Position numbers and translations under genes: made by a program | Shown here: piece by piece, positions 1 to 17,705 of the stretch | Numbering within the stretch: position 1 is the stretch's first letter | Layout: each line of letters starts with the position of its first letter | Origin: Paraspadella gotoi | Taxonomy: Eukaryota; Animalia; Chaetognatha | Length of the DNA stretch: 17,723 bases | Direction of reading: 5' to 3' | Assembly (NCBI GenBank): GCA_051294375.1 | Contig: JBJCIZ010000061.1 | Coordinates: 1-17,723 of the forward strand | The notes under the pieces: generated by a model | Seen by the model: only the letters and a program-made list of their open reading frames with translations | What the model was told of the DNA's origin: nothing | The model's database searches: none

Positions 1-36
1 ATTCGTGGAGGATTTATCTCGGGTTCAAATCCCACA
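1..36 (-). repeat. First 36 nt of element 1 3' LTR
   Basis: 1-36 matches 5753-5788 at 33/36. Reads TGTGGGATTTGAACCC on the minus strand, directly after the PPT. Confidence 0.9.
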
Positions 37-45
37 TCCCCCCCT
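37..45 (-). other. Polypurine tract of element 1
   Basis: Minus-strand AGGGGGGGA immediately before the TG of the 3' LTR; element 2 has AGGGGGA at the same place. Confidence 0.88.
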
Positions 46-186
46 GACGAAAACATCGCGGTTTGCGGAAAGTATGGGCTCAATTAGGTAAGCAAAAGTG
101 ATTTGAGGACTAGATATAAATTCGTAACTAATATATACATATATTACATTAATAAATAAAGGAAAGGAAATGAATTAAATTCAAAC

Positions 187-3100
187 TCACTCGATATCCA
201 AGAGGTGACGTATCACTGCGTTGTAATTTGGTTTCGAGATATTGTTTATAGTTTTGTAAGAAAAATCCGAAGGTTGGGGGCGTGAAAAACGCTCGAATCG
301 AGGGCGTGGCCGCTCGTCCGTTTCTTCCGTTGGCGCTGACGCCGGAAATGACGCCGGGGATGGCGGCGGTGCGCCGAAAGTTAGCGTCGGAGCAGTGGAG
401 GATTCTCCAGAGACGCCGTCGCGTGGAACGGAAGTAAAAGGAGGAGCTTCTGGTGGCGCTGCTGGTTGTGACGTATTGGGGAATGCATCGTCGAGGTTCT
501 GAAGCATCTCTGCATCTTCATCGTCGTCTTCCTCGAGGTCCTCGTCGATAATTTGTCGATTTTGTTGTTGGCGAGTTTCTGATCGAGTTTGCCTCGTCGT
601 CGGAGGAGGTCGACGGTTCGTGGGCCCGGACGCCGGCCTGGAGGAGGAGGTGACGGAGGAGGTGAGGGCTGAGATGCTCGTTCTTCGCCTGTTTCGTCCC
701 TCCAAAGCGTCGCTGGCTTTATTCTGGCGATGGCAATCGTCTCGATCCCTCGGCCGGGAATTTCGACTTTAAAGTTTAAGTTATCGCGCTCGACCACTCG
801 ATAGGGTCCTTGATAGGGCGCCGTTAGCGGAGGATTGACGCCGGAGCGTTGAACAAACACGTGTGTTGCATCGGCGAGAGTGTCTGGGAGGTAGAGGCGA
901 GGGACTCGATGTGTAGAGGTTTCTATGGGTTGAAGGCGCTCTACTTCTAGTCGAAGATTGTCGCGTAATATCCGGCGGCTCTCATGGAGTTGTTCGTCGG
1001 CTACTGGGGGAGGAAGAAGGTCCCCTGGCACTGCTAGGCCCTCTCCGAATACCAATTGTGCTGGAGAGGCGCCGATGTCGGGTTTAAGTGTCGTACGGAT
1101 CGCTAGGAGTGCCGAGGGTAATCTCCAGAACCATTGGTTGGGTTAGAGTCATTGAGCCGAGAGAGGCATAAGGAGCCTCTTTTAAGTGCCGATCGGATCT
1201 TCCGAGACTAATCCATTGGATTGTGGATGGTAAGCGGCTGTCTGATAATGTTTGATTCCCCACGTTTGTGTGAGTTGAGTCCAAATGGCCGTCGAAAACT
1301 GAGCGCCTCTATCTGTGGTAATTGCCGCTGGAATGCCAAACTGGGCGATCCATCCATGTGCGATGGCGTCAACAACGGATGTAGTTGACATGTCCTTCAT
1401 GGGAATTGCGGCTGGCCATCGAGAGAACCTGTCGACGACTGTGAGAAGGGAGCTGAAACCGNNNNNNNNNNGCATGAGCGTGATATCCACGTTCAGGTGA
1501 TGAAATCGTTTGGCAGGGACCTCGAATTCTCCTATATTTGGAGTCACGTGACGCGTGACTTTCGCGCGTTGACATTGGAGGCACTCTCGTGCCCAACGGG
1601 TAGCGTCTGCCTTTAAAGATGGCCATACGAATTTGGCGGCGATCGTTTCACGCGTGCGAGCGACGCCGGGGTGGCCCAGGCCGTGAATGGCGTCAAATAT
1701 CTTTTTCCGCCAGGATTCTGGCACGAATGGTCGCGCTGGGCCATTGGAGACGTCCACAAATAGTTCTTGATCGCCGACGCTGACCTTGCGGAATTGAAGA
1801 CCCGTTCTGGCGTCGTTTGAGNNNNNNNNNNAATCGCGATCGAGTGTCTGGTGGCGCGCCATTGCTTGGAGGTCAACGCCCTCTTGCCCGATGGCGTTGA
1901 CGGTCGCCTGGAGGTCTTGGGACTTCTCCTGAGGAAGCGGACGGTCGACTGCTGCGATCGGAGGCGGATTGGGTCGTGATAGCGCATCCGCGACCACATT
2001 GGCCTTTCCGCGGATATGGCGTATGTCGGTCGTAAATTCTGATATTACGGATAGCTGGAAATTGTGGCGTGTCGTCTGTGGTTCGGCGCGCTTATGTAGG
2101 GCGTGGATTAACGATTGGTGGTCCGTATAGAGGGTAAAAGACCTACCCTCTAGCCAATGCCGAAAGTGACGGACCGCTCGAAAGGCGCCATAGAGTTCCC
2201 TGTCGAACGGTGGCCATCTACGCTGTGAGGCGTCGAGTTTGGCGGAGAAGAACGCCAGGGGTTCCCACCCCTGTGGCGTTCTTTGTTCGAGGACCGCGCC
2301 CACTGCTATATCTGAAGCGTCGGTAGTGAGCGCTAGTTGGGCGTTTGTTCGAGGGTGACGAAGGAGGGCGGCGTTGGCCAGCGCCTCTTTAATGGCGTCG
2401 AAGGATTTGGAGCAAGCTTCCGACCAGTTAAGTTGCTTAGGCTTGCCCGCGAGGATGTCGAAGAGGGCCGCGGCATGGTGAGCGGCATGTGGTATAAACC
2501 GGCGATAATAATTCACCATGCCCAGGAAGCGTTGCAACTCTTTGACGGTTGTGGGCGGGTTGGTGGCGCGAATAGCGTCGACTTTTTGAGGGAGAGGTTT
2601 CACTCCAGTGGCGTCGACCAAATAGCCTAGGAATTCGAGTGATGGTTGGCCCAGAATACATTTTTTTCTGTTGATGACTAACCCGTTGTCGGCGAGAGAG
2701 TCGAAAACGGCCTTCAGGTCACGAAGATGCTCCGCTTGATCNNNNNNNNNNACGAGGATATCGTCTAAATAGACGTAAGTGTGCGGTATATCACCCAAGA
2801 TTTCGTCCATCATCCGCTGGAAATCTTGCCCCGCATTTTTGAGGCCGAAGGGGGTGCGGAGAAAGACGAAAAGGCCGAATGGGGTGATAACCGCCGTCTT
2901 GGGTATATCCTCTTCCGCCACGGGGATCTGGTGATACCCCTTCAAAAGGTCTATTTTGGAAAATACTTTTTTGCCTGCTAACTCGGCGTTAAAATCCGCC
3001 AATAATTTTACAGGATATTTGTCATCCTTCGTGTTGGCGTTCAGTCTGCGGAAATCTCCGCAACATCTCCATCCACCATCGGCTTTGGGGACGCAGAGGA

Positions 3101-3782
3101 GCGGAGACGACCAGGAACTCTTTGCTCTCTTTGCGACGCCCAGCGCGACGAGTTTTTCCAACTCCGCTTTTGCCACCGCCAGTTTCTCTGGGGGCAGGCG
3201 TCGTGCTCGTGCCTGACAAGGTCGACCGAAGGTTGGAATATGGTGTTTGACACCGTGCTTCGGCTCCTTGATCTCGAAGGTAGGCGTGGCCAGCGTTGGG
3301 TACTGATCGAGGAGTTGGTAGTAGGCGTTATCTTTCTCCTCGACGAAATTCACATGGGAAGGAGGAGTAACGTCGGATATATCGCAGGAAATCGTTGACA
3401 AGTCTCTAAGATCGATGAGAGTTCCATCTCGGTGATTCGGAGCTAGATAGAACTCCGCTAAAAAATCCGCTCCTAATATACTTTGTGTGACATCTGCCAC
3501 AAGGAAGTCGAATGCAAATACTCTCGTGCCAAGTACCACTCGGCGGCGGACATTACCGTAGGCATTAATTGGCGTTCCGTTAGCTGCTTGAAGCTTTGGG
3601 CCGATTGGGCCCGCCACTCGCTGGGCGGTCGTCGGTGGAACTAACGATACAAGGGCGCCTCCGTCGACGAGCCAGTGGCGACCGTCGGTGGCGTCCTTTA
3701 CGCGCAATAAGAAGTTGTCCGGTGAATCTGCATTGGCGCGGGGCACAGCGTTCNNNNNNNNNNGCCCGCGACGCCATTTCCC
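187..3782 (-). CDS. pol: Pol polyprotein of element 1 (protease, RT, RNase H, integrase with GPY/F motif and long tail); split by indels near 1200-1060 and ~615
   Basis: ORF 1182..3746: WLVDGGA (PR), FSKIDLLKGYHQ/PFGLKNA/YLDD (RT), TDASD/TDHQ/NVVADALSR (RH), HGLGH...CLQC, NVD and TDRG (IN). ORF 381..1055 has PYQGPYRV. ORF 187..705 holds the tail homologous to element 2. Indels may be sequencing errors or decay. Confidence 0.93.
3738..3782 (-). promoter_or_regulatory. Putative -1 ribosomal frameshift signal of element 1
   Basis: G GGA AAT in the gag frame (3782-3776), 6-nt spacer, then GCGGGC...[N gap]...GTGCCCCGC stem; same layout as elements 2 and 3. Confidence 0.7.
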
Positions 3783-4884
3783 GATGTCGTGTCCTTGCGG
3801 TCACGGCGTTCTCCCTTGCGGGCGCATCCGCGTTCACAACGAAAGGCGGCGTCGCCAAACTTGAGGTGCCACCTGCAGATTTGTTTGAGGCGCGCGTTGG
3901 GCGGTCGAGTCGATGTCGACGATCCGTTTGAGGCGCTCTGGCGCCACGTGTTTTGCTGAGGACGGCCTTTATCGCGGCGCTGTCCCTGGATTGCGTTGAC
4001 GCCGGCGTCGGCGTCGCCTTCTGAGTCGCTCGTTGACGAGTCGATTGGCTTATCCAGTGTAGCGGCGTTTATTGTCGAGCTCGGCGTCGCGAGAGTTGGG
4101 CGACCTTCAGCGTCGAAGAACTTGTCGGCCGCCTCTGCTAGTTGGGCCGCCGTCCAGTCGTCGACTTTGTCTTCGAGAGATCGCCTCACCTCTATAGGTA
4201 AACCTCTAATTATCGTCTCTTTCTTTAGATCGTCGATTGTGACGGTTTTCGTCTTCTCCTCCAATCGAGCAAGATGTTGAGATGGCTTGAGACCGTCTCT
4301 GGCGAAGCCGTCGAGAAAAATCGCCGCCTGTTGGCGTGGCGTAGTGCCATATCTTTACGTAAGTAGGCGATGAAAGCCGTCCAATTTGCTTCGGTAGGTT
4401 CTCCATAAAGGTAGGAGTTAATACGTGGATTAGCGTCAACGCTAATTTTAGATTCAAGGTGCGCAAATTTCTCGCTTGCCTCTTTAATGTTGGCGCGGAT
4501 GTACGCGGCGTCGACCCTTCGAATCCATATCTCTATGTTTTTTGGGTCGAACGCCGGCAACTCGGGTTTCTTCTTCTTTTCCAGAGCTTTCAACGCCGTG
4601 GCTAATGCTGAACGGAGCGCCTCTGTTTCGTCGGCACCGGAAGCAGTTGCCATCTCTTCCTTGGCGTTGTTAAAGGCTCGGAGGTTCGGTGACGTCGGTG
4701 GAAAGGCGAAGAATCTGCCAGGAGACGCCGGCGGATAAAGAAAAGCTGAGCCGCCTGCTGAGGTACTGGGATCGCTTGGTGAAGTCTCACGGGAGATGCG
4801 GCCTCGGCCGGCGCCTTTGGGGACGTTGAGTGTAGCCTGTTGACGCTGGCGGGAAGCTTGGCGCGTCTCCCTGGGCTCGCTCAT
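3752..4884 (-). CDS. gag: Gag of element 1 (one 1-nt frameshift near 4352; stop inferred at the edge of the N gap)
   Basis: ATG at 4884 (MSEPRETRQ) just downstream of the PBS. KPELPAFDPKNIEIWIRRV aligns to the Gag of elements 2 and 3. Continues in ORF 3698..4264 with the CRWHLKFGDAAFRCERGC knuckle. Confidence 0.88.
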
Positions 4885-4920
4885 CGATAGATTGGGCGTG
4901 TGTGGTTGGATTGGTTCGTC

Positions 4921-4933
4921 GTCGGGATTACCA
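4921..4933 (-). other. Primer binding site of element 1 (tRNA-Trp-like)
   Basis: Minus-strand ...TCTACA-T-TGGTAATCCCGAC; 11/13 to TGGTGACCCCGAC, the complement of the metazoan tRNA-Trp 3' end (recalled). Confidence 0.8.
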
Positions 4934-5579
4934 ATGTAGATGATAGCGAATAAACTCACTTTGGAAGCAGCTTGAATGTCGAAGTGCTTATGACGAGGCT
5001 GTTGGAGGTTCGTATGGGGAAGTCCTGAGGGGCGCAGAGAGGGAACTCGAAGGTTCGAAGGACGTCCACAAGAAGTACACGAAGATTGGCGCGCGTGGCG
5101 TGGAAGAAATCGCGTGACGTAAGCTTCGACCAAAAAGTTTTTATTTTTTCGAGTAGTTTTTCTGGACTTGATAATAAAAGTTCGAGTAACCAATTAATTT
5201 GGTTATTAAGTAAATATCAGGACCTTAATAAATAATCAACAGCATATAGATATTCATACTGCTTTTGTCAGCAAGCAATGAGAATATCTATATGTATAAA
5301 ATGCAATGGAATCAGTATTGATTATTAAGCAATAATAAGTATTAATAGAGCAATTGTTGAGACTACTATAGGCTTAGTAATTCGCGAAGGTTTTTATAAG
5401 TAAATGAATTGTAGAAAAGATTAAGCTGGATTTAGTCAATAAGTAGAACAAGTAGAATCAGCTGATGAATCCTGTTTGGATCAGATTGCTCTTTTGTTTA
5501 TGATAAACAAAAGGTAAACAAATAATAAAAGTGATGTTCAATCTAATATAAAGATTAACAAGTAAAAATAATCTTTGTT

Positions 5580-5655
5580 ACCAGAGTGGCGACATTGGTT
5601 GAGGCTCGGCAATGGATACAGGGTCCGAGTTCGAGACTGAGTCGCTGCTCCTTTT
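5580..5655 (+). ncRNA. Degenerate tRNA-like Pol III unit in LTR 1, antisense to the element
   Basis: A-box-like TGGCGACATTGG at position 8 (5587), B-box GTTCGAGAC (5629-5637), ACCAGAG/CGCTGCT ends pair 5/7, 71 nt, followed by TTTT (5652-5655). Cloverleaf is poor, so not a functional tRNA. Confidence 0.5.
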
Positions 5656-5722
5656 ATTTATTTTATAATTTAATTATAATCGATTCTAAAACATAACGAA
5701 TTGTTTTAGAGTAAAAATATCG

Positions 5723-5788
5723 ATCGGCCTGGCCGTCGGCAATCATCAAATAATTCGTGAGGAATTTATCTCGGGTTCAAATCCCACA
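5723..5788 (+). promoter_or_regulatory. Second tRNA-like A/B-box unit at the outer end of LTR 1
   Basis: A-box-like TGGCCGTCGG at 5730 and consensus B-box GGTTCAAATCC at 5774-5784, 44 nt apart; the B-box is also present in the 3' LTR copy (22-32). Confidence 0.5.
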
Positions 5789-5935
5789 GGGTTAGGGTTA
5801 GGGTTAGGGTTAGGGTTAGGGTTAGGGTTAGGGTTAGGGTTAGGGTTAGGGTGGTTAAGGGTTAGGGTTGGTTAGGGTGGGTTAGGGTTAGGGGGGTTAA
5901 GGGTTAGGGTTAGGGTTAGGGTTAGGATTTAGGGT
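5789..5935 (+). repeat. Telomeric (TTAGGG)n tract, ~24 units
   Basis: Perfect GGGTTA units 5789-5852, then a mix of perfect and variant units (TTAAGGG, GGTTGG, GGATTTA). Confidence 0.97.
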
Positions 5936-6606
5936 TGTAGGCGATTCCGACCGACTTATTGTTACAGAAAAAAATCGTCCCCGACAGGATTCGATCCTGG
6001 GATCGGAGGCCTTGGGAGTCTGGATTTACAGCTCAGAGCTAACCAGACAACCGATCGATTCCTTTTCAGAACTCCTATTTTAAACTTTAATAGAAACAGA
6101 AACTTTTGTTTATTCAAGATTGAAACAAACCCTGAAGATGGCTCAGTAGTATTATCTGTTTTTGTTTCTGATATGTTTTCTTTGAACTTGTTAACTGAAT
6201 AATTCAGTCTCGATTCCTGTGCTTTATCTCAATGATAATAAATACTTTATCACATAAACTGCTTTTAATTAATTCATCTCAATGTAAAGACATACATTAT
6301 ATGAAAGATGAAATGAACAAAAATGAATCGAGTGAATTGTTTTTATCTTCTCATACTTCATTAATGAAACAAAGATATTCAACTACATGAAATTAATCTC
6401 TCATTAATATCGACTTAATAATAATTCATTAATTAATCATTAATCGATCTCGAAGTGAAAAGAAACAAATCTCTAACTACACTCTACATTTTCCCTGCAA
6501 CGCAATACATAGAATGCTCTCAGTATTGTAAACGTCTTAGTACTGTATCGTTCAGTCTGGCCAACACTCCGTCACGCTTGTGGCTGGCCTCATATGTCTG
6601 GCCACA
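5936..6606 (+). repeat. 5' LTR of element 2 (~671 bp; may end at 6608)
   Basis: Starts TGTAGGCGATTCCGAC (repeated at 11938) and ends GCCACA(CA) before the TGG of the PBS. Confidence 0.85.
5968..6048 (-). ncRNA. Degenerate tRNA-like Pol III unit in LTR 2, antisense to the element
   Basis: Minus strand: GTCTGGT-TAGCTC...CAGG-ATCGAAT-CCTG-TCGGGGACG, 73 nt (6048-5976), with a T-arm hairpin, B-box GGATCGAATCC 44 nt after the TAGC A-box start, then T7. Confidence 0.55.
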
Positions 6607-6608
6607 CA

Positions 6609-6621
6609 TGGTGAACCCAAC
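6609..6621 (+). other. Primer binding site of element 2 (tRNA-Trp-like)
   Basis: TGGTGAACCCAAC right after the LTR end; 11/13 to TGGTGACCCCGAC. Confidence 0.75.
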
Positions 6622-6713
6622 TACGAAGCAAACCAACCAAGTAACATCAAACGAAGGGGATTCACAACGAAAGATTACCACTTCTGAGACGGAGATAAAA
6701 GGCGACGCTACTC

Positions 6714-7784
6714 ATGAGCGGCTCAGAGCTCCGGTCTCGACTCCGCTCGGCCCAACGCGACGCCGACGACGCAGCTAAACTACAGCTACCAATTGGATTC
6801 GGACGGGGTCACAGATCCAGATCGACCTCGCCAGCTTTTGCAGACGCCGTCCCCGCTTTCAGCTATCCAGTAGGCAACGCGAATAACGAGGACGTCAACA
6901 TGGCGACCGGCGGCGCTGTCGAGCGCGATATTCATGACGAAAACGCGGAACTGCGCGCCGCGCTGGCCGCCGCGACTCGCGCCCTTGAACGAGCGGCTAA
7001 TCGCAAGCCAGATCTCCCGGAATTCGACATAACGAACATCGAGATATGGATAAAGAGAGTCGAGGCGGCGTACACTCGAGCAGGAGTGACGGCGCCCAAA
7101 AGCAAATTTGCGCACCTCGAAAGCAAAATTGGAATCAACGTCGACGCTAAGATTAACCAATATCTATATGGCGACGCCAACGAAGCGACATGGTCTCAGT
7201 TCCTCGCGTATCTGAGGCAAGAATATGGATTTACCAGGCGGCAGCAGGCCGCCACCATCTTGGATCCGCTCGACGTCGACGGCGTCAAGCCGTCAAGGAT
7301 GCTTGCACAGCTAGAGGAGAAAACTAAAACGTTATCTCTCGACGATGTGCGAAAAGAAAAAGTATTAAGAGAACTGCCAAACGACATCCGCCGGCAACTT
7401 GAGGAAAAGGCCGACGAGTTGACTGCCAGTCAACTATGCCAGCTAGCCGATCGCCATTTCGAAAACGACGGAAGCTTGAAACTCCGCCAGACGACATCAC
7501 TCATCAGCAACGTCGAGAGAGGTCATCAAGGTCGAGTAGAGTCGGATTCAGACGACGAGGAAGGCATTAACGCCGTCGACAGACATCACCGAAAGAACGC
7601 AGGCGGAAAACGGCGCCAAAATCAGAATCCAAAGGCCAAGAGCAAAAACAAGCTGACAACACTCTGCGCGAAACACGTCAAATTCGGCGACGAGGCCTGG
7701 TCTTGCGACCCAGGTTGCGCCAGGTTTGACGAGGTCCAAGCAAAAAAGAAAGAGGGAAACTCCAAAGGGGGGCGCCGCAAGTGA
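6714..7784 (+). CDS. gag: Gag of element 2, 356 aa, intact
   Basis: Open ORF downstream of the PBS; CAKHVKFGDEAWSCDPGC is a C-X2-H-X9-C-X3-C knuckle; homologous to the other two Gags. Confidence 0.93.
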   Translation: MSGSELRSRLRSAQRDADDAAKLQLPIGFGRGHRSRSTSPAFADAVPAFSYPVGNANNEDVNMATGGAVERDIHDENAELRAALAAATRALERAANRKPDLPEFDITNIEIWIKRVEAAYTRAGVTAPKSKFAHLESKIGINVDAKINQYLYGDANEATWSQFLAYLRQEYGFTRRQQAATILDPLDVDGVKPSRMLAQLEEKTKTLSLDDVRKEKVLRELPNDIRRQLEEKADELTASQLCQLADRHFENDGSLKLRQTTSLISNVERGHQGRVESDSDDEEGINAVDRHHRKNAGGKRRQNQNPKAKSKNKLTTLCAKHVKFGDEAWSCDPGCARFDEVQAKKKEGNSKGGRRK

Positions 7785-7799
7785 ACGCCGCCGTCCCCC
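7754..7799 (+). promoter_or_regulatory. Putative -1 ribosomal frameshift signal of element 2
   Basis: G GGA AAC in the gag frame (7754-7760), 6-nt spacer, stem GGGGGGCG (7767-7774)/CGTCCCCC (7792-7799); pol is in the -1 frame. Confidence 0.82.
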
Positions 7800-10700
7800 A
7801 GGAGCCACTCAGTTCATCGGCCACAAACGACCTCATATTCATTCGTGACGCCGGGAACAAGACAAAATGGCTGGTAGATGGAGGCGCCCTCCTATCAATA
7901 GTTCCACCGACTCCTTATCAACGCAGCAAAGGGCCTGATCAAATCATGAAGCTCCAAGCGGCAAATGGATCGGCAATCGATTGCTATGGAACTGTAGAAA
8001 AAACTGTGAGATTGGGAAATAGACAATTCGAATATACATTTGTAGTAGCAGACGTGAAACAAAATATACTCGGAGCAGATTTCTTGGCCGAAAATTATTT
8101 GGCCCCCAATCACAGAGACGGCCTCCTCATCGACTTGCGAGACTACTCGACAATAGCGGCGTCGACCTCGAAGGAAACGGCCGCCCACGTCAATTTCGTG
8201 GATCGCAAGGGCGAGAAATTTTACAAGCTGTTGGACTCTTTCCCATCGTTATCAACTCCCACGTTTCAGCTGAAAGAACCTCGTCACGGAGTTACTCACT
8301 CAATCCCCACCGAAGGACGCCCGTGTCAGTCGCGTGCAAGACGCCTAGACGCGGAAAAACTCGCCGTGGCAAAGAAGGAATTAGAGAAAATGGTTTCTCT
8401 GGGTATTGCGAAACGTGGGAAGTCCGAATGGTCATCCCCTCTGCACGTGGTGGCGAAGCCAGATGGGGGTTGGAGATGTTGTGGCGACTACCGGCGTCTA
8501 AATGCTCAAACTATAGACGACCGGTACCCAGTCAAGCTATTAACGGATTTTAATAGCCAACTCGAAGGGAAAACAATCTTTTCCAAAATAGATTTACTGA
8601 AGGGATACCACCAAATCCCGGTAAATCCCGACGACATAAAGAAAACGGCAGTAATCACGCCGTTTGGGCTTTATGTATTTCCACGCTGCCCTTTCGGTCT
8701 CAAGAATGCTGGTCAGGACTTTCAGCGCCTGATGGACCAGATTCTTGGAGATATTCCACATACTTTCGTCTACTTAGACGATATATTGGTGGCATCGAGT
8801 TCCCCAGAAGAACACCTGAAAGATCTGAACGTGTCTTTAAGGCACTAGATGAAAATGGTTTGGTTGTCAATACCAAAAAGTGCCTCCTTGGGCAAGATTC
8901 ACTGGAGTTCCTAGGTTTTCTGGTTGATCGAAACGGCGTGCGACCACTTCCGGCGAGAGTTCAGACGCTGAGAGAAACAACGAGGCCGACATCCATCAAG
9001 GAGTTGCAGCGATTCCTTGGGATGATAAACTACTACCGTAGGTTCATCCCAAGGGTCGCACACCGATGCTCTCCTCTCTACGAGGCCCTCAGCGGCAAAC
9101 CGAAGTCCCTGGAATGGACAGAAGACTGTGAGCAAGCCTTCAATGCCATCAAAGAGGGTTTAATCTCCGCGGCGCTGCTTCACCACCCACGCACTGGAGC
9201 CCAACTTTGCATCACTACAGATGCATCGGATCACGCTGTAGGCGCAGTCTTGGAACAGAGAGGACCCAAAGGTTGGGAACCTTTGGCGTTTTTCNNNNNN
9301 NNNNTCGCCAAAAATCAAAAGTTGTGGCCCCCGTTCGATCGGGAGCTCTATGGAGCTTTCCGAGCAGTAAGGCACTTTCGCCACTGGGTAGAAGGCCGCG
9401 CGTTTACGATCTACACAGATCATCAAAGTCTAGTCTCCGCGATTCGAAAAAAATCTGAACCACAGACTTGTCGTCAGTCTTACCAATTATCGGTAATAGC
9501 CGAATTCACGACGGATATTCGCTATTTGAAGGGAAAGGCCAATGTAGTGGCCGATGCCTTGTCTCGGCCCAATAATCCACCAATCGCGGCATCGAAAGGC
9601 GCTATTTCGACTAAAAACACAAACGCGGCCATCGAAACCTGCCAAAAGGCAAATACCGCAGCAAAAGTTCCAGTCGCGAGCGAGAAGAGGAACGACGAGG
9701 ACGCAGCTACCACTTCCGGTCCAATAGCACCTACCTCATCCTCAGCCTCAGCCCCTGCGCAACTCGCGAATAAAAAAACTGAAACCGAAGCCAGCGAGGC
9801 CTGCCAAATAGCACCTACCGCGGGAAAAAATAGCAATTCAAGCGAAAAAGCGGAAAAAAGCGTCAAAGCGAATCGATTAGAGGACATTAACGCCGTCATA
9901 GCGTCCCTTACTTCCTTCGACATCGACTTTGAGCAGATGGCTCGAGAGCAAGCTCTAGATAGCGATTTCCAGAGGATAGCAGAAGACGCAAGATCGGGCT
10001 TAACTTTCAGAAAAATTCGCGTGGGAAATCAAGATCTACTCGCCGATATTTCTAACGGCCCGGCCCGCCCGTTCGTCCCAGCGGCTTGGAGGAAAAAAGT
10101 CTTCAACATCATCCACGGATTAGGACACCCAGGAGTTGAAGCTACGCGTAAAGCCATGGCATCAAAATTCGTGTGGAACAATATGCGTCAAGACGTGACC
10201 CGCTGGTCACGTGACTGCATCGACTGCCAAAAAGCAAAAGTTACCAGGCACACAGTTCCCGATATTGGGGAATTTAAAATTCCAGCCAAACGCTTTCAAC
10301 ACTTAAACCTCGACCTGGTAAAAATGCCTCGATCGAATGGCTTCTCTCATCTACTTACCATAGTCGATAGGTTTTCCCGCTGGCCGGCTGCGATTCCTTT
10401 GCAAGATACACTTACCCCAACGATCATCGACGCTTTGAGCCTACATTGGATCAGCACCTTTGGCACACCAGCAGTGATAACTACTGATCGAGGGAGCCAA
10501 TTTACCTCGACCTTGTGGCGTCAATTGACCAAGCAATGGGGCATCCGCCATCAGACAACTACAGCCTACCATCCACAGGCCAACGGCCTCGTGGAGAGGT
10601 TCCATAGAAGACTGAAAGAATCTCTGATAGCTTTAGCGAGAAACGAGAAAGAAAAATGGTTTTGGAAACTCCCCCTTACTCTACTAGCGATTCGCACAAC

Positions 10701-11643
10701 AGTGAAGGAGGACGTCGGCGCCTCAGCGGCCGACCTTGTCTTCGGCGAGGGACTCGGCGTACCTGGCGCCCTACTTGGCGACACTCAAACAAACGAAAAC
10801 GTCACCAATCAACAACGACGAAACCATTTATCAAATCTCAGAGTGGAGGTCGCTCGGCTACAAACAAAACCAACCTCCGCCCACCGTCAACCGGCTATTC
10901 ACATCCCCGACAATCTCGACGCCGCCAAATATGTCTTTATTAGGCGCGCAGGAGTCCAACCTCCTTTAGTCCCACCTTACGAAGGCCCANNNNNNNNNNT
11001 AAGCAAAAGTGGATTAAATATGACCGTCGAGATACCCAGTGTCGGCAGAGAAGTAATAAATATCGCTCGGGTGAAACCCGCCTGGATTAGCGACGAGGAC
11101 GTTGACGAGGAGATTGACGACCCAGAGGCACGCCCAGAGAGGCGGCCCGGCCGTCGTCCAGGAATTCGAACGAGACAACCAGCGCCATCAAATCGTCAAA
11201 CGCGCTCAATGAATCAGCGAGCGAGATCTCCTTCTCCAGCGCTTGCTCCTCCTCCTCCTCCTTCTCCTCCTCCTCCTCCTCCNNNNNNNNNNNNNNNNNN
11301 NCCCACTCCCAACCCTTCCCCCGAACCCCCAAATTCGCCTTTGCATTTTTTGCCATGTTTTTCCCCTTCTCCCAGGCCTCCACGCTCAGACGCATCATCA
11401 TCGAACGAGAGGAACAACAACAACAACAACGAGAAGCTTGAGAAGAAAAAATTTGAGCCAACGTGTCGATTCTCAAGACCAACGAGTGAAAACTTTTCTA
11501 ATAAGGCATATAACGTCAACACTCGTCCTACTTATGCTGTCGTCCTCAAAGAACTCATTCAGCGTCAAAAGGAGGAAAACAACAACAAAGGCGAAAACAA
11601 AAACAAAATTCCCTTGAAACCAACTGCCGGAGACGGTCTTTGA
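7754..11643 (+). CDS. pol: Pol polyprotein of element 2; one 1-nt deletion near 8827 splits ORFs 7781..8848 and 8860..11643
   Basis: WLVDGGA, YLDD, TDASD, NVVADALSR, HGLGH...CIDC, NLD/TDRG/VERFHR, PPYEGP. Adding one base near 8827 restores DLERVFKALD, as in element 3. Confidence 0.95.
11247..11282 (+). repeat. (CCT)n microsatellite encoding poly-Pro in the integrase tail
   Basis: CCT repeats running into an N gap; equivalent tract at 16661-16711 in element 3. Confidence 0.85.
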
Positions 11644-11930: not shown

Positions 11931-11937
11931 AGGGGGA
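11931..11937 (+). other. Polypurine tract of element 2
   Basis: AGGGGGA immediately before the TGT of the 3' LTR. Confidence 0.85.
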
Positions 11938-11953
11938 TGTAGGCGATTCCGAC
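11938..11953 (+). repeat. Start of element 2 3' LTR
   Basis: 16/16 identical to 5936-5951, then N gap. Confidence 0.9.
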
Positions 11954-11981
11954 NNNNNNNNNNCCGGAGACGCGCCACACT

Positions 11982-11994
11982 TGATGATCCCGAC
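11982..11994 (+). other. Primer binding site of element 3 (tRNA-Trp-like)
   Basis: TGATGATCCCGAC two nt after GCCACA; 11/13 to TGGTGACCCCGAC. Confidence 0.65.
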
Positions 11995-12146
11995 ATCGAA
12001 CCCAGCCAACCTTCAAGAAGGGGTCCCACTCAACGAATACTTCTCTGAGGTAAGATTGGGCGAAGCATTGAGATAAATTAAATCGCCCAATTCGCTGACA
12101 CCCTTTTCATTTCCTTCACGACGAATCTGACGACGTCGACGTCTCC

Positions 12147-13219
12147 ATGAGCGATCCCGATCTCCGCTCCCGCCTCCGCTCGGCCCAGCGCAACTCGGAG
12201 GATCAACGAGAACCTCCAACAAGCCTACAAGTCCCTGGAGGATTCGGAAGAGGTCAGAGATCGAGATCAGCGTCTCCAACGTTCGTCGACGCCGCCCCCG
12301 CTTTCCAATTCCAGCGGGCATACGAGGAAAATTTCGCCGACGCCGACATGGCGACCAACGACGCCGCCTCTAGGGGATTACGCGACGAGAATGAAGAGCT
12401 TCGAGCGGCGCTCGCCGCTGCCACGCGCGCATTGGAACGAGCGTCCAATAGAAAACCGGAACTGCCAGATTTCGATACTGCAAATATCGAGATATGGATA
12501 AAGCGTGTCGAATCGGCTTACACTCGCGCCGGAATTAGCGCCGCCAAATCAAAATTCGCCCATCTCGAAGCGAAAATCGCCGTCAAGGTAGACCCTAAGA
12601 TAAATCAATATCTATATGGCGAAACAACGGAGGCCACGTGGCAAGAATTTCTGGCGTACCTAAGAAAGGAGTATGGACTCACCAGGCGCCAACAGGCCGC
12701 CACAATACTCGACGCCATCGACGCCGACGGCCTCAAGCCTTCAAAACTTCTCGCTCAGCTAGAAGAAAAAACTAAATCGTTGACTCTCGATGATATTAGA
12801 AAGGAAAAGATTCTCCGGGAACTTCCGATCGAGGTGCGCCGCCAATTGGAGGAGAAAGCCGACGATTTGTCGGCAAGCGACCTCTGCCAGATGGCGGACC
12901 GGCACTTCGACAATGAGGGAAACCTGAAGATCAAGACCTCGTCAACGATCAACAACGTCGAACAATTCCGCGGCGAACAAGGCGACTCAGAGTCAGAGGA
13001 CGACGGCGTCAACGCCGTCAACATCTCCAAAAGAAGCTTCAACGGGAAGAAGAGAACCAACCCGGCTCCAAAGGGAAAACCAAAGTCGAAGCTGTTGACT
13101 CTGTGCCAGAAGCATGTCAAGTTCGGCGACGCCGCTTGGTCATGCGAACCTGGATGCTCCAAGTCGACGACATGCCCAAGAAACGTGAGGGAAACGCGAA
13201 AGGGGGACGACGTCGGTGA
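12147..13219 (+). CDS. gag: Gag of element 3; true stop inferred at 13217-13219 (a 1-nt deletion near 13164 falsely extends the ORF to 13487)
   Basis: CQKHVKFGDAAWSCEPGC knuckle. Restoring one base gives KFDDMPKKREGNAKGGRRR*, matching element 2 RFDEVQAKKKEGNSKGGRRK*. Confidence 0.9.
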
Positions 13220-13231
13220 ACGCCGTCCCCC
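13189..13231 (+). promoter_or_regulatory. Putative -1 ribosomal frameshift signal of element 3
   Basis: GGGAAAC (13189-13195), 6-nt spacer, perfect stem GGGGGACG (13202-13209)/CGTCCCCC (13224-13231). Confidence 0.8.
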
Positions 13232-16200
13232 ACGCGTCCAGCAGTTCACCGACGCTCAACAACCTCTCTTCATTCGCGACGCCAAGGCAAGACCAAGTGG
13301 CTCGTCGACGGAGGAGCGTTGCTATCTATCGTTCCGCCGTCTCGGGAACAGCGTCAACGGGGTCCTGACCCATCAATCAAACTGCAGGCGGCAAACGGCT
13401 CGTCAATCAGCTGTTATGGAACGACCAATCGAACCGTTCAACTGGGAAATCGTCAATTCTTCTACAAGTTTGTCGTCGCGGATGTAAAACAATCGATACT
13501 TGGTGCCGATTTTCTAGCTGAAAATTTCCTGGCGCCAAACCACCGCGACGGGCTGCTATTAGATCTACGCGACTACTCGACAATCGCGGCGTCAACAGCA
13601 ACAGAAGAAACGTCCCACGTAAATTTTGTAGATCGACAGGGCGAAAAATTCTACAAACTCTTGGAATCGTTCCCAAATCTCTCTACGCCAACATTCGAGG
13701 TCAAAGAACCTAAACATGGCGTCACTCACGCAATACCAACAGAGGGAAGGCCCTGTCAATCTAGAGCGAGGCGCCTCGATCCTGAAAAACTCGCCGTCGC
13801 CAAACGAGAACTAGAGAAGATGGTCTCGTTGGGCATAGCGAAGAGGGGCAAGTCGGAATGGTCCNNNNNNNNNNACGTCGTCTCCAAGCCAGACGGCGGA
13901 TGGAGATGCTGTGGGGACTACCGACGGCTGAACGCTCAAACTGTGGATGACAAATATCCTGTGAAACTGCTTACTGACTTTAATTCGCAACTCGAGGGCA
14001 AAACAATCTTTTCGAAGATTGATTTGTTAAAGGGATATCATCAGATCCCGGTAAGCCCAGAAGATGTAAAAAAGACAGCAGTTATCACACCATTTGGCCT
14101 CTACGTCTTCCCTCGTTGTCCATTTGGACTTAAGAACGCAGGGCAAGATTTTCAGAGGCTAATGGATGAGATCCTAGGCGAAATCCCACATACCTTCGTC
14201 TACTTGGACGACATACTCGTAGCGTCATCGTCCGAGGAGGAGCACTATCACGACCTGGAACGAGTCTTCAAGGCTCTCGATGCCAACGGACTGGTAGTAA
14301 ACACAAAAAAATGTTTACTCGGTCAAAAATCACTCGAGTTCCTAGGTTTTTTAGTAGACGAAAACGGCGTCAGACCGCTGCCCGAACGAGTCAAGACATT
14401 ACAGGAGACGACGCGGCCAACGACGATCAAGGAGCTTCAACGCTTCTTAGGGATGATTAATTATTATCGAAGANNNNNNNNNNAGGTCGCTCACCGCTGC
14501 GCCGCCCTGTATGAAGCACTAAGTGGGAAACCGAAACATCTCAACTGGACTAGCGAGTGTCAAGAGGCCTTTGAAGCGATCAAAGAAGGCTTAGTCCAAG
14601 CAGCGCTACTCCATCACCCCAGAACGGGCGCTAAACTCTGCATTACTACTGATGCATCCGACCAGGCAGTTGGAGCTGTCCTGGAACAACGGGGACCACG
14701 ANNNNNNNNNNCGTTGGCGTTTTTTTCAACAAAACTGGCAAAAAACCAAAAGCTCTGGCCACCGTTCGATAAGGAACTACTTGGAGCTTTTCGAGCGGTC
14801 CGTCACTTCAGACATTGGGTAGAGGGTAGAGCCTTTACACTCTATACCGACCACCAAAGCTTGGTAACCGCGATACGAAAAAAAGCTGAGCCACAAACCG
14901 TGAGACAATCCTACCAGCTTTCGGTTATAGCCGAGTTCACAACGGACGTCAGATACCTGAAAGGTAAAGCCAACGTAGTGGCTGACGCCCTATCGAGACC
15001 CAACGCCACGCCAAAAACGCCAACAACGTCGTCAGCAAACTCGTTACCCGCCTCGTCGTCATCGTCGTCCTCATCGTCGTCGTCAACGTCGACGTCACTC
15101 ANNNNNNNNNNTCAATCATCGTCAACAACGTCAACGTCGACGCCACTCAATTCAGAGTCTCCATCGTCCTCCTCAGCGTCGTCGCCGTCACCGCCGCTGA
15201 TCGCAACGGCGTCAAATTCGACAAAAACAACAACGCCGACGAACGAGGAGAAAAGCGAGACAACAACAACAACGACAACGACAAAGACGATAAAAAACAA
15301 TCGCCTAGAGGACGCACAGGCTGTAATCGCCTCTCTCACAAACTTCGAAATTAACTTCGAACGCATGGCTCAAGAGCAGACACTGGATCCTGACTATCAA
15401 AAGATAGCAGACGACGCAAGGTCAGGCCTGACTTTCAGAAAGATTCGAGTCGGCAACGAGGATCTATTAGCCGACATCTCCAACGGACCAGCCCGACCTT
15501 TCGTCCCGGCGTCATGGAGAAGAAAGATTTTCGATGTAATTCATGGCTTGGGACATCCCGGCGTCGAAGCGACCAGGAAAGCAATAGCAGCCAAGTTTGT
15601 GTGGACCAACATGCGCCAAGAAGTCACTAAATGGGCAAGAGAGTGCGTAAGTTGTCAAAGAGCAAAGGTAACGCGTCATGTAATTCCAGAAATCGGTGAG
15701 TTTAAAGTCCCACAGCGAAGATTTCAACATATTAACCTTGACATAGTCAAAATGCCTAAATCGAATGATTATTCTCATCTTTTGACAATAGTAGATCGAT
15801 TTTCGAGATGGCCGACGGCTATACCAATCAAAGATACGCTAACGTCAACTATACTCGACGCGTTGAGCCACGAATGGATCTGCATATTTGGAGTCCCGTC
15901 AACCATCACCACAGATCGAGGCACTCAATTCAGCTCCGGACTTTGGCGCCAACTCGTCAAACATTGGGGAATCAAGCATCAAACGACGACGGCTTACCAC
16001 CCCCAGTCGAACGGACTAGTTGAGCGTTTTCACAGGCGATTAAAGGAGTCATTAATCGCCTTAGCAAACGAGAATCGACAGCAATGGTATTGGAAACTCC
16101 CAATGACTTTATTAGCTATCCGCACAACCGTGAAAGAAGACATCGGCGCCTCTGCGGCCGACATGGTCTTCGGAGAAGGAATCAGCATCCCTGGAACTAT

Positions 16201-16711
16201 CCTCGACGATCCACAACTCGACAACGTAGCACTACAGCGCCAACGTCAACGCCAATTGGCGAAACTTCGAGTCGAGGTAGCTCGATTGCAACCCACTCAA
16301 ACTTCAGCCCACTGTCAACCAAACGTACACCTACCGAGCAACTTGGAAACGGCCCAGTACGTCTTCGTGAAGAGAGCAGGAGTAAATCCCCCGCTGGTCC
16401 CGCCATATGAAGGCCCATACAAGGTAATAAGTCGAAACGGCCTCAACATGACGGTGGAAATCCCTAGCAGCGGGCGCGAAACAATAAACATCGCAAGAGC
16501 AAAACCAGCGTGGATTAGCGACGAGGCGCTGGAGGTGGACCAGGACCACCCTCAGCGGCGCCCAGCAGGTCGCCAACCAGGACTCAGAACGAGGCAGGCA
16601 CCTCCCACAACAAGAACAACACGATCAGAGAACCAACGCGCCGCCTCGCCTGAATCGAATCCTCCTCCTCCTCTTTCTCCTCCTCCTCCTCCTCCTCCAT
16701 CTTCCCCCCCC
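13189..16711 (+). CDS. pol: Pol polyprotein of element 3 up to the N gap (small indels within ~13220-13290)
   Basis: ORF 13319..16798 has YLDD, RNase H, HHCC, DDE and PPYEGPYKVI; KTKWLVDGGA is in frame just upstream of 13319. Residues after the gap are not homologous to element 2. Confidence 0.94.
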
Positions 16712-16738
16712 NNNNNNNNNNNNNNNNNNNNNNNNNCG

Positions 16739-17705
16739 CATCGAAAAATCCAAAATTCCAAAAATATCAAAAACAAATTAAAATCCAACCATTTCTAAAA
16801 TTCAAAAAATTGGCGCAAAAAATAAGTATTTAAAAATCGATAAAACAAGGGGTAAATGTACACGGCAGTCGGAGCTTTTCGGGAGGAAGACCGAGATGCT
16901 GTGGAAGAAGGCGCTCCGGCTGTCGATTAGGCTAAAACTGGGGATTTTGTCAATTTTTGTTTGTTGTCATTTTGTTCTTTTTTGTCGTTTTAGCATTTCT
17001 TTTAGAACAATGAATAAGTGGGCCTGTTGTTGTTGTTGTTGTTGTTAATATTTGTATTCGGGTCGATTCGTAAAAGTTTTCTGGTGTCAGGCCTTGAAAT
17101 CGTTCCAACGTTGGCTCAGTCTCGGCTTTTTGTGATTGTTGTTGTGTTGTTATTCTCTCGATCTTCGATTAGCGGACATCGTCTGCGTGGAGGCGCGGAG
17201 AAGAGAAGACGGGAGCAAAAAAGCGTTAGCGGGTAGTGGGTGGGTCGGGGGAAACTGGGGGTGCGGGGGTGAAAGGGGGGAGAGAAGATCGAGAGAATAA
17301 CAACAACAACAACAATCAACAAAAAGCGAGAACTGAGCCAACGATGGAACGATTTTCAAGGCCGACACCAGAAAACTTTTCGAATCGAACCCGAATACAA
17401 ATACCTAACAACAACAACAACAACAACAGGCCCACTTATTCAATTGTTCTAAAAGAAATGCTAAAACGACAAAAAGAACAAAATGACAACAAACAAAAAT
17501 TGACAAAATCCCCAGTTTTAGCCTAATCGACAGCCGGAGCGCCTTCTTCCACAGCATCCTCGGTCTTCCTCCCGAAAAGCTCCGACTGCCGATGTACATT
17601 TACCCTTGTTATCGATTTTTAATACTATTTTTGGCAATTTTTGAATTTTAGAAATGTTGGATTTTAATTGTTTTTGATATTTTGAATTTTGGAAATTTTT
17701 CGATG
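16739..17705. repeat. Long inverted duplication (arms 16739-17166 and 17284-17705)
   Basis: The left arm is the reverse complement of the right arm, differing mainly in homopolymer lengths. Confidence 0.92.
17284..17526 (+). CDS. pol: Displaced C-terminal end of element 3 integrase
   Basis: ERFSRPTPENFSN...RPTYSIVLKEMLKRQKEQ aligns with element 2 CRFSRPTSENFSN...RPTYAVVLKELIQRQKEE. Confidence 0.82.
   Translation, partial: EDRENNNNNNNQQKARTEPTMERFSRPTPENFSNRTRIQIPNNNNNNNRPTYSIVLKEMLKRQKEQNDNKQKLTKSPVLA

Follow-up and report, generated by a model that had tools for sequence, protein, structure and literature searches.

Two Gypsy LTR retrotransposons joined to one telomeric tract in Paraspadella gotoi and their possible preference for TTAGGG repeats

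Structure of the window and its telomeric tract

The window, the whole stretch of DNA analysed here (17,723 nt from Paraspadella gotoi), is made up of three related Gypsy elements: E1 (1–5788) on the minus strand, and E2 (5936 to ~11953) and E3 (~11964–16800) on the plus strand. Pfam domains of protease, reverse transcriptase (RT), RNase H and integrase follow each other in Gypsy order in each of them, which together with the polypurine tracts and LTR starts gives the Ty3/Gypsy layout LTR-PBS-gag-pol(PR,RT,RH,IN)-PPT-LTR. In PDB the best matches were to Ty3, namely its RT (E 7.5e-48) and its Gag-Pol (E 4.6e-47).

E1 is cut by the window start, so that only the first 36 nt of its 3′ LTR are present (1–36, 92% match to 5753–5788), next to a polypurine tract (37–45). 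Its pol (1182–3800) encodes protease, RT, RNase H and integrase (PF00078, PF17919, PF17921, PF00665). The C-terminal part of the integrase with the GPY motif occupies a separate frame (381–1142), and the frame of the integrase tail (187–768) ends in a conserved motif. The gag of E1 (3698–5193) carries a CHCC motif and is read in two frames (4225–5193 and 3698–4354). The 5′ LTR (4935–5788, TGT...ACA) measures 854 nt, with an inner end placed by the primer binding site (PBS, 4920–4933) only. This PBS appears to be of a degenerate tRNA-Trp type, with 2 of 14 positions mismatched to the PBS of the outgroup locus L017, which we take to be of the tRNA-Trp type.

On the plus strand, E2 begins with a 5′ LTR of 671 nt (5936–6606, TGT...ACA) and a degenerate PBS (6609–6622, 3 of 14 mismatches to that of L017). 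Its gag (6699–7784) is DUF7041-like with a CHCC motif, and its pol (7730–11643; frames 7730–8848 and 8557–11643) overlaps gag in the −1 frame. The integrase tail motif, a candidate tether, lies at 11455–11571, and the polypurine tract with the first 16 nt of the 3′ LTR at 11931–11953. E3 follows with the last 16 nt of an LTR and a PBS again mismatched at 3 of 14 positions (11964–11995), gag (12099–13487) and pol (13220–16798); its protease-RT region is 85% identical to that of E2. Runs of N within the window ORFs preserve frame and length, and frame breaks are present in E1 and E2. A fold-back of the 3′ region of E3 (16739–17705, arms 92.7% identical) has a noisy centre and is probably a long-read or assembly artefact. 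At the E2/E3 join (11938–11979) only ~16 nt of the 3′ LTR of E2 and ~16 nt of the 5′ LTR of E3 remain, on either side of 10 N. Telomeric repeat is not visible between the two elements, and the join reflects a deletion, a collapse of the join or a tract hidden from view.

A (TTAGGG)n tract of 147 nt (5789–5935, plus strand) separates E1 from E2. It contains 18 copies of TTAGGG and none of CCCTAA, runs in one orientation and has GGGT at both ends. Its first 60 nt are perfect repeats, and its middle third is degenerate (81% matches in TRF). The E1 junction at 5788/5789 reads ...CCCACA|GGGTTAGGG, and the E2 junction at 5935/5936 reads TTAGGGT|TGTAGG. Both are outer ends of 5′ LTRs, with the two elements oriented away from each other. 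Since the start of each element's own 3′ LTR after its polypurine tract is known (36/37 in E1 and 11937/11938 in E2), both boundaries of the tract are fixed to the base. The earlier note had described two Gypsy LTRs joined base-precisely to (TTAGGG)n at the same GGGT phase, dissimilar and pointing in opposite directions, and this description was confirmed on each point: LTR1 and LTR2 share chance matches of 10–16 nt only (E ≥ 0.24). In the Pol frames, identity between E1 and E2 is 58–69%. With unrelated LTRs and this degree of Pol identity, E1 and E2 belong to different families. The visible junctions number two, come from one locus, are both 5′ ends, and both show the GGGT phase; no 3′ flank of E1–E3 was seen in the window or among the run contigs listed. 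The tract does not reach an end of the window; 11.8 kb of element DNA lie distal to it. The telomeric-junction feature of E1 and E2 is real and unusual.

The outer ends of both LTRs also carry a motif resembling a B-box, at 5773–5785 (+) and ~5987–5999 (−), antisense to the element in each case, with a T run after it in LTR2. The assignment follows the B-box consensus, and a Pol III promoter or an insulator is possible. ARAGORN predicted no tRNA gene at these LTR ends, and their folds did not surpass those of shuffled sequences (z −0.03 to −0.95); tRNA-gene identity was ruled out. A search of the tRNA-like motifs in Rfam gave only a 13-nt T-arm match (E 0.44).

CsRn1 affinity and the integrase tail

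Searches with RT-RNase H gave 3706 matches, the best 120 of which comprised 119 unnamed ENA proteins (63–69% identity) and one jellyfish protein (44%). The Gag matches (n = 78) were all unnamed proteins, 75 of which have the CHCC motif. This motif, CX2HX9CX3C, is a hallmark of the CsRn1 clade and occurs in all three window elements. The protease active site was mostly D-G-G instead of D-T/S-G, both in 95 of 107 matched proteins (P0002–P0120) and in the window pol frames.

A quick tree of 113 rows and 225 columns, rooted at the midpoint, was built in IQ-TREE with 30 of the 119 ENA proteins and 79 of the 80 related loci, L064 being too short; named CsRn1, Kabuki or Boudicca sequences were not among its rows. 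E1–E3 grouped together (SH-aLRT 92) and formed one clade with the ENA proteins and the loci L001 and L002 (SH-aLRT 100, branch 0.56). Under the midpoint root this clade was nested among metagenome rows with CHCC Gag and a canonical PBS. E1–E3 appear, from sequence comparison, to be CsRn1-like, and they belong to a distinct clade whose other members, among the sequences compared, are known only as unnamed metagenome proteins. The CsRn1 affinity that the earlier note had assumed is supported by the Gag motif in three of three elements and by this tree.

The CsRn1 clade (CsRn1, PwRn1 and AgCR1-14) is characterised in the part of PMC2582038 used here by CHCC Gag and 4-bp target site duplications (TSDs) of varied sequence. 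E1–E3 share with it the CX2HX9CX3C Gag, the PR-RT-RH-IN order, the −1 frame overlap of gag and pol, TG..CA LTRs and probably a tRNA-Trp-like PBS and a 4-bp TSD (PMC2582038). Compared with that description, the PBS of E1–E3 is degenerate (2–3 of 14 mismatches), the protease is mostly of the D-G-G type, and the LTRs of E1 and E2 are longer (670–850 nt versus 146–407) (PMC2582038). The integrase tail of the E1–E3 lineage is also about five times longer and ends in a helix motif.

Viral contigs yielded no relative in two scans, and prokaryote genomes a single distant match (L080, 27%). Gypsy RT in bacterial metagenome-assembled genomes (P0121 and L080; SAR324 and Proteobacteria) is probably eukaryotic contamination. 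Scanning 48 of 64 parts of the metagenome contigs confirmed 363 stretches, and the best 80 of these gave 79 loci. No telomeric doublet of eight telomere motifs was found in these 79 loci; the result is uninformative because the only close relatives (L001, L002 and L064) all stop short of the outer LTR end.

After GPY/F, the integrase tail measured in 101 of the 119 clade proteins had a median length of 256 aa, against 55 aa in 42 outgroup tails closed by a stop. A motif at the tail end was present in 81 of the 101 clade tails and in 3 of the 42 outgroup tails (shuffled tails: mean 1.9, maximum 7), a contrast that is partly by construction because clade tails had served to define the pattern. 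All three window elements have it, and conservation peaks at the motif (0.63) compared with 0.03–0.26 in the linker. The motif is not exclusive to the clade, since a similar RPTYAEV-type motif occurs in the outgroup tails of L008, L010 and L014.

The AlphaFold2 model of the homolog P0033 (60 sequences; mean pLDDT 69.7, pTM 0.44) predicted no chromodomain and a tail that is disordered apart from a single low-confidence helix at 1170–1180. A Pfam chromo match, as in chromoviruses, was likewise absent from the integrase C-termini of E1–E3, and the tail motif had no match in PDB at E ≤ 10. The TRF-binding-like motif F/YxLxP occurred in only 3 of 102 tails and was set aside. The conserved tail motif is a candidate tether only.

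Support from sequencing runs

Words of the E2 sequence were present at 0.83–0.89 in eight DNA runs of one organism, which represent five samples and two studies; the run richest in them may be the window's own source. No RNA run with E2 words was found among the runs listed. Contigs were compared for four runs (X3, X4, X5 and X7), from which human-matching contigs, possibly including telomeric ones, had been dropped. The window differed from the contigs of all four runs by eight small indels and by one stretch with 100 letters in place of 9, and is error-rich.

LTR2 formed a single contig stopping at 6606 in each of the four runs, which confirms the LTR end of E2. The LTR2 contig of X3, X4 and X5 was joined to the polypurine side, with no 5′ flank among the matches listed. 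In X7 (sample S4, study P2; record 21) an LTR2 contig of 685 nt aligned from 5929. All seven aligned bases of the telomeric flank matched, three further letters were unaligned, and the three substitutions all fell inside the LTR. As X7 repeats 7 nt of the telomeric flank, the E2 junction, which recurs in one of the four runs and there in a separate sample, is genomic and not only noise of the window. It may be the same inherited insertion as that in the window. This independent support covers the E2 junction only.

The ratio of LTR to internal contig depth was 2.0 in X3 and X7 and 1.3 and 1.0 in X4 and X5, depths that are not taken as copy numbers. The low LTR2 depth in X4 and X5 could be related to tandem copies sharing LTRs, to circles or to library bias. 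Other contigs of the same organism matched the PBS, the gag start and the gag-pol junction, which indicates several further families of the E1–E3 clade.

Proposed insertion at the telomeric repeat and its alternatives

Among duplication lengths of 2–7 bp, only 4 (GGGT) makes the right flank of E1 equal to the left flank of E2. A 4-bp duplication at E1 and E2 is deduced from this agreement, one side of each element being visible. Related loci with both flanks resolved had duplications of the same length, namely AAGG (L046 and L051, probably one insertion), ATTT (L068) and GAAT (L070); the other LTR pairs among the 80 related loci had no resolvable flanks. The outgroup element at L046 (7985–12163) and L051 (1818–5967) has inserted in the middle of a near-palindromic sequence, with a 4-bp duplication. 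The insertion sites of L046, L051, L068 and L070 contained no telomeric DNA. Of the six 4-bp sites in the repeat, TA[GGGT]TA has the highest dyad symmetry (4/10 versus 0–2/10).

The interpretation given in the earlier note was partly supported, and its three arguments on this point were upheld. The 4-bp duplication in relatives agrees with these loci and with the CsRn1-like elements described in PMC2582038, in the part drawn on. The symmetry of TA[GGGT]TA was found as expected, although that argument cuts both ways, and we agree that a shared phase, taken by itself, has a 1-in-6 chance. The shared phase is consistent with insertions made by an integrase. It is weak evidence for sequence-specific recognition because a generic two-fold integrase would favour the GGGT phase by whatever route it came to the tract. 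The stronger evidence is that two families, with Pol only 58–69% identical, end on one tract of 147 nt, with a third relative adjoining.

At this locus the lineage appears to act like a telomeric-repeat invader, and a preference is a likely reading. We put the probability that it inserts preferentially into TTAGGG arrays, with the phase set by integrase symmetry, at roughly 0.55. The elements would replicate by copy-and-paste through Gag particles and tRNA-primed reverse transcription. The integration complex would then reach telomeric chromatin, perhaps because the disordered tail binds a protein of the telomere, much as the Ty5 integrase binds Sir4 (PMC4700185). The integrase would choose TA[GGGT]TA for its symmetry, the highest in the repeat, and could thereby insert in both orientations, and repeated insertions would build clusters of element, tract and element like the TRAS/SART or MoTeR arrays. 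A bolder version is more tentative, and we would not wager on it: the whole clade (more than 100 metagenome sequence clusters) would be telomeric-repeat-specific, with a motif-tethered integrase cutting TA[GGGT]TA in either orientation, and would be the first LTR counterpart of TRAS/SART.

The strongest competitor of a preference is passive accumulation, with broad insertion, survival in a subtelomeric or interstitial repeat cluster, and a phase due to chance (1 in 6) or to a generic symmetry preference. The non-telomeric flanks of the resolved outgroup loci fit this account, as do E3 following E2 with no visible repeat and the selection of the window for its oddness. The TSDs of 14 Anopheles CsRn1-like elements are likewise varied and include AGGG and GGTT; one is ACCC, which is GGGT read on the opposite strand (PMC2582038, Table 1). 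Passive accumulation nevertheless requires two families to land no more than 147 nt apart inside the repeat. A unique 5′ flank of LTR2 was also absent from the four runs, a point tempered by the fact that short overlaps may escape alignment. Telomeric repeat is normally a tiny share of a genome. We consider passive accumulation unlikely, though a serious competitor.

A second possibility is a chimera, in which read or assembly pieces were joined through the telomeric repeat and one or both junctions are false. The discrepancies between the window and all four runs, the fold-back (93% identity), the frame breaks in E1 and E2 and the odd E2/E3 join with ~16 nt of each LTR all fit a faulty assembly, and the E1 junction has none of the independent support that the E2 junction has. 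Such a chimera would have to break exactly at LTR termini, and the E2 junction is repeated in X7. A false join within the repeat would moreover spare both LTR-telomere junctions and remove only the claim of a shared tract. We judge a chimera improbable.

Healing by telomerase is less probable still. The tract would have been added at the E1 LTR terminus, on a broken chromosome or a linear cDNA, and E2 joined or inserted later. The polarity of the E1 junction (a 3′ end ...CCCACA and then the G-strand) and the 60 nt of perfect repeats that follow fit de novo addition, but the break would have to fall precisely at the end of the LTR and the phases would have to agree by coincidence. The polarity of the E2 junction is left unexplained, and healing is apparently excluded there by the G-strand leading into the start of the LTR. 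A telomere-telomere fusion was ruled out because the tract, free of CCCTAA, has a single orientation.

The invaders of telomeric repeats named in the reviews used here are of another kind. Reviewed telomeric elements include SART, TRAS, GilM/GilT, Zepp1, MoTeR1, Tx1-1_ACar and the Drosophila HTT array (PMC10088271, in the part used), to which the non-LTR FoTeRs can be added (PMC12857005, likewise). E1 and E2 resemble TRAS/SART, MoTeR1, FoTeR, Tx1-1_ACar, GilM/GilT and Zepp in lying within telomerase-type repeats and in clusters split by short tracts (PMC10088271, PMC12857005). In contrast to TRAS/SART-type elements, which are non-LTR and use an endonuclease and target-primed reverse transcription (PMC10088271), E1 and E2 have LTRs and an rve integrase, and the non-LTR structure with a target-cutting endonuclease typical of TRAS, SART and MoTeR is found in none of E1–E3. 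FoTeR orientation is fixed (PMC12857005), whereas E1 and E2 show both orientations.

Ty5 of Saccharomyces is also an LTR element, and its integrase targeting domain, which directs it to chromosome ends, is a model for the proposed tether (PMC4700185). It differs in belonging to the Copia group and in entering silent chromatin with no fixed repeat phase. Ty5 is tethered by Sir4, and yeast LTR targeting rests on cellular factors and not on DNA sequence; the Ty5 tether is demonstrated, whereas that of E1 and E2 is hypothesised (PMC4700185, in the part drawn on).

The GGGT at the tract also contrasts with the varied TSDs of CsRn1-like elements, for which the portion of PMC2582038 used reports no telomere association; Saci2 has 4-bp TSDs with no consensus (PMC12471100, in part). 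Telomere targeting of the bdelloid TelKA is not reported in the portion of PMC5408684 used. Our literature search, whose scope left out most subscription journals, Repbase Reports and supplements, found no Gypsy or other LTR element specific for telomeric repeats, and an earlier description of such Gypsy elements is possible. The phrase "telomere-specific LTR" occurs in two of the sources, seen in part: it is a slip for TRAS1 in PMC13535481 and denotes the human subtelomeric LTR10b/MER61 repeat in PMC5580475.

The telomeric-repeat invaders reviewed are non-LTR elements, and an integrase-type element in the same safe harbour would, if the preference is true, be a new solution to target choice. 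The lineage would then provide a short tether motif open to testing, which may mimic an interaction of telomere proteins, as well as a natural integrase for a defined site present in many copies. Chromosome ends in the host would be a mosaic of LTR elements and telomerase repeats, with consequences for the assembly and interpretation of its genome.
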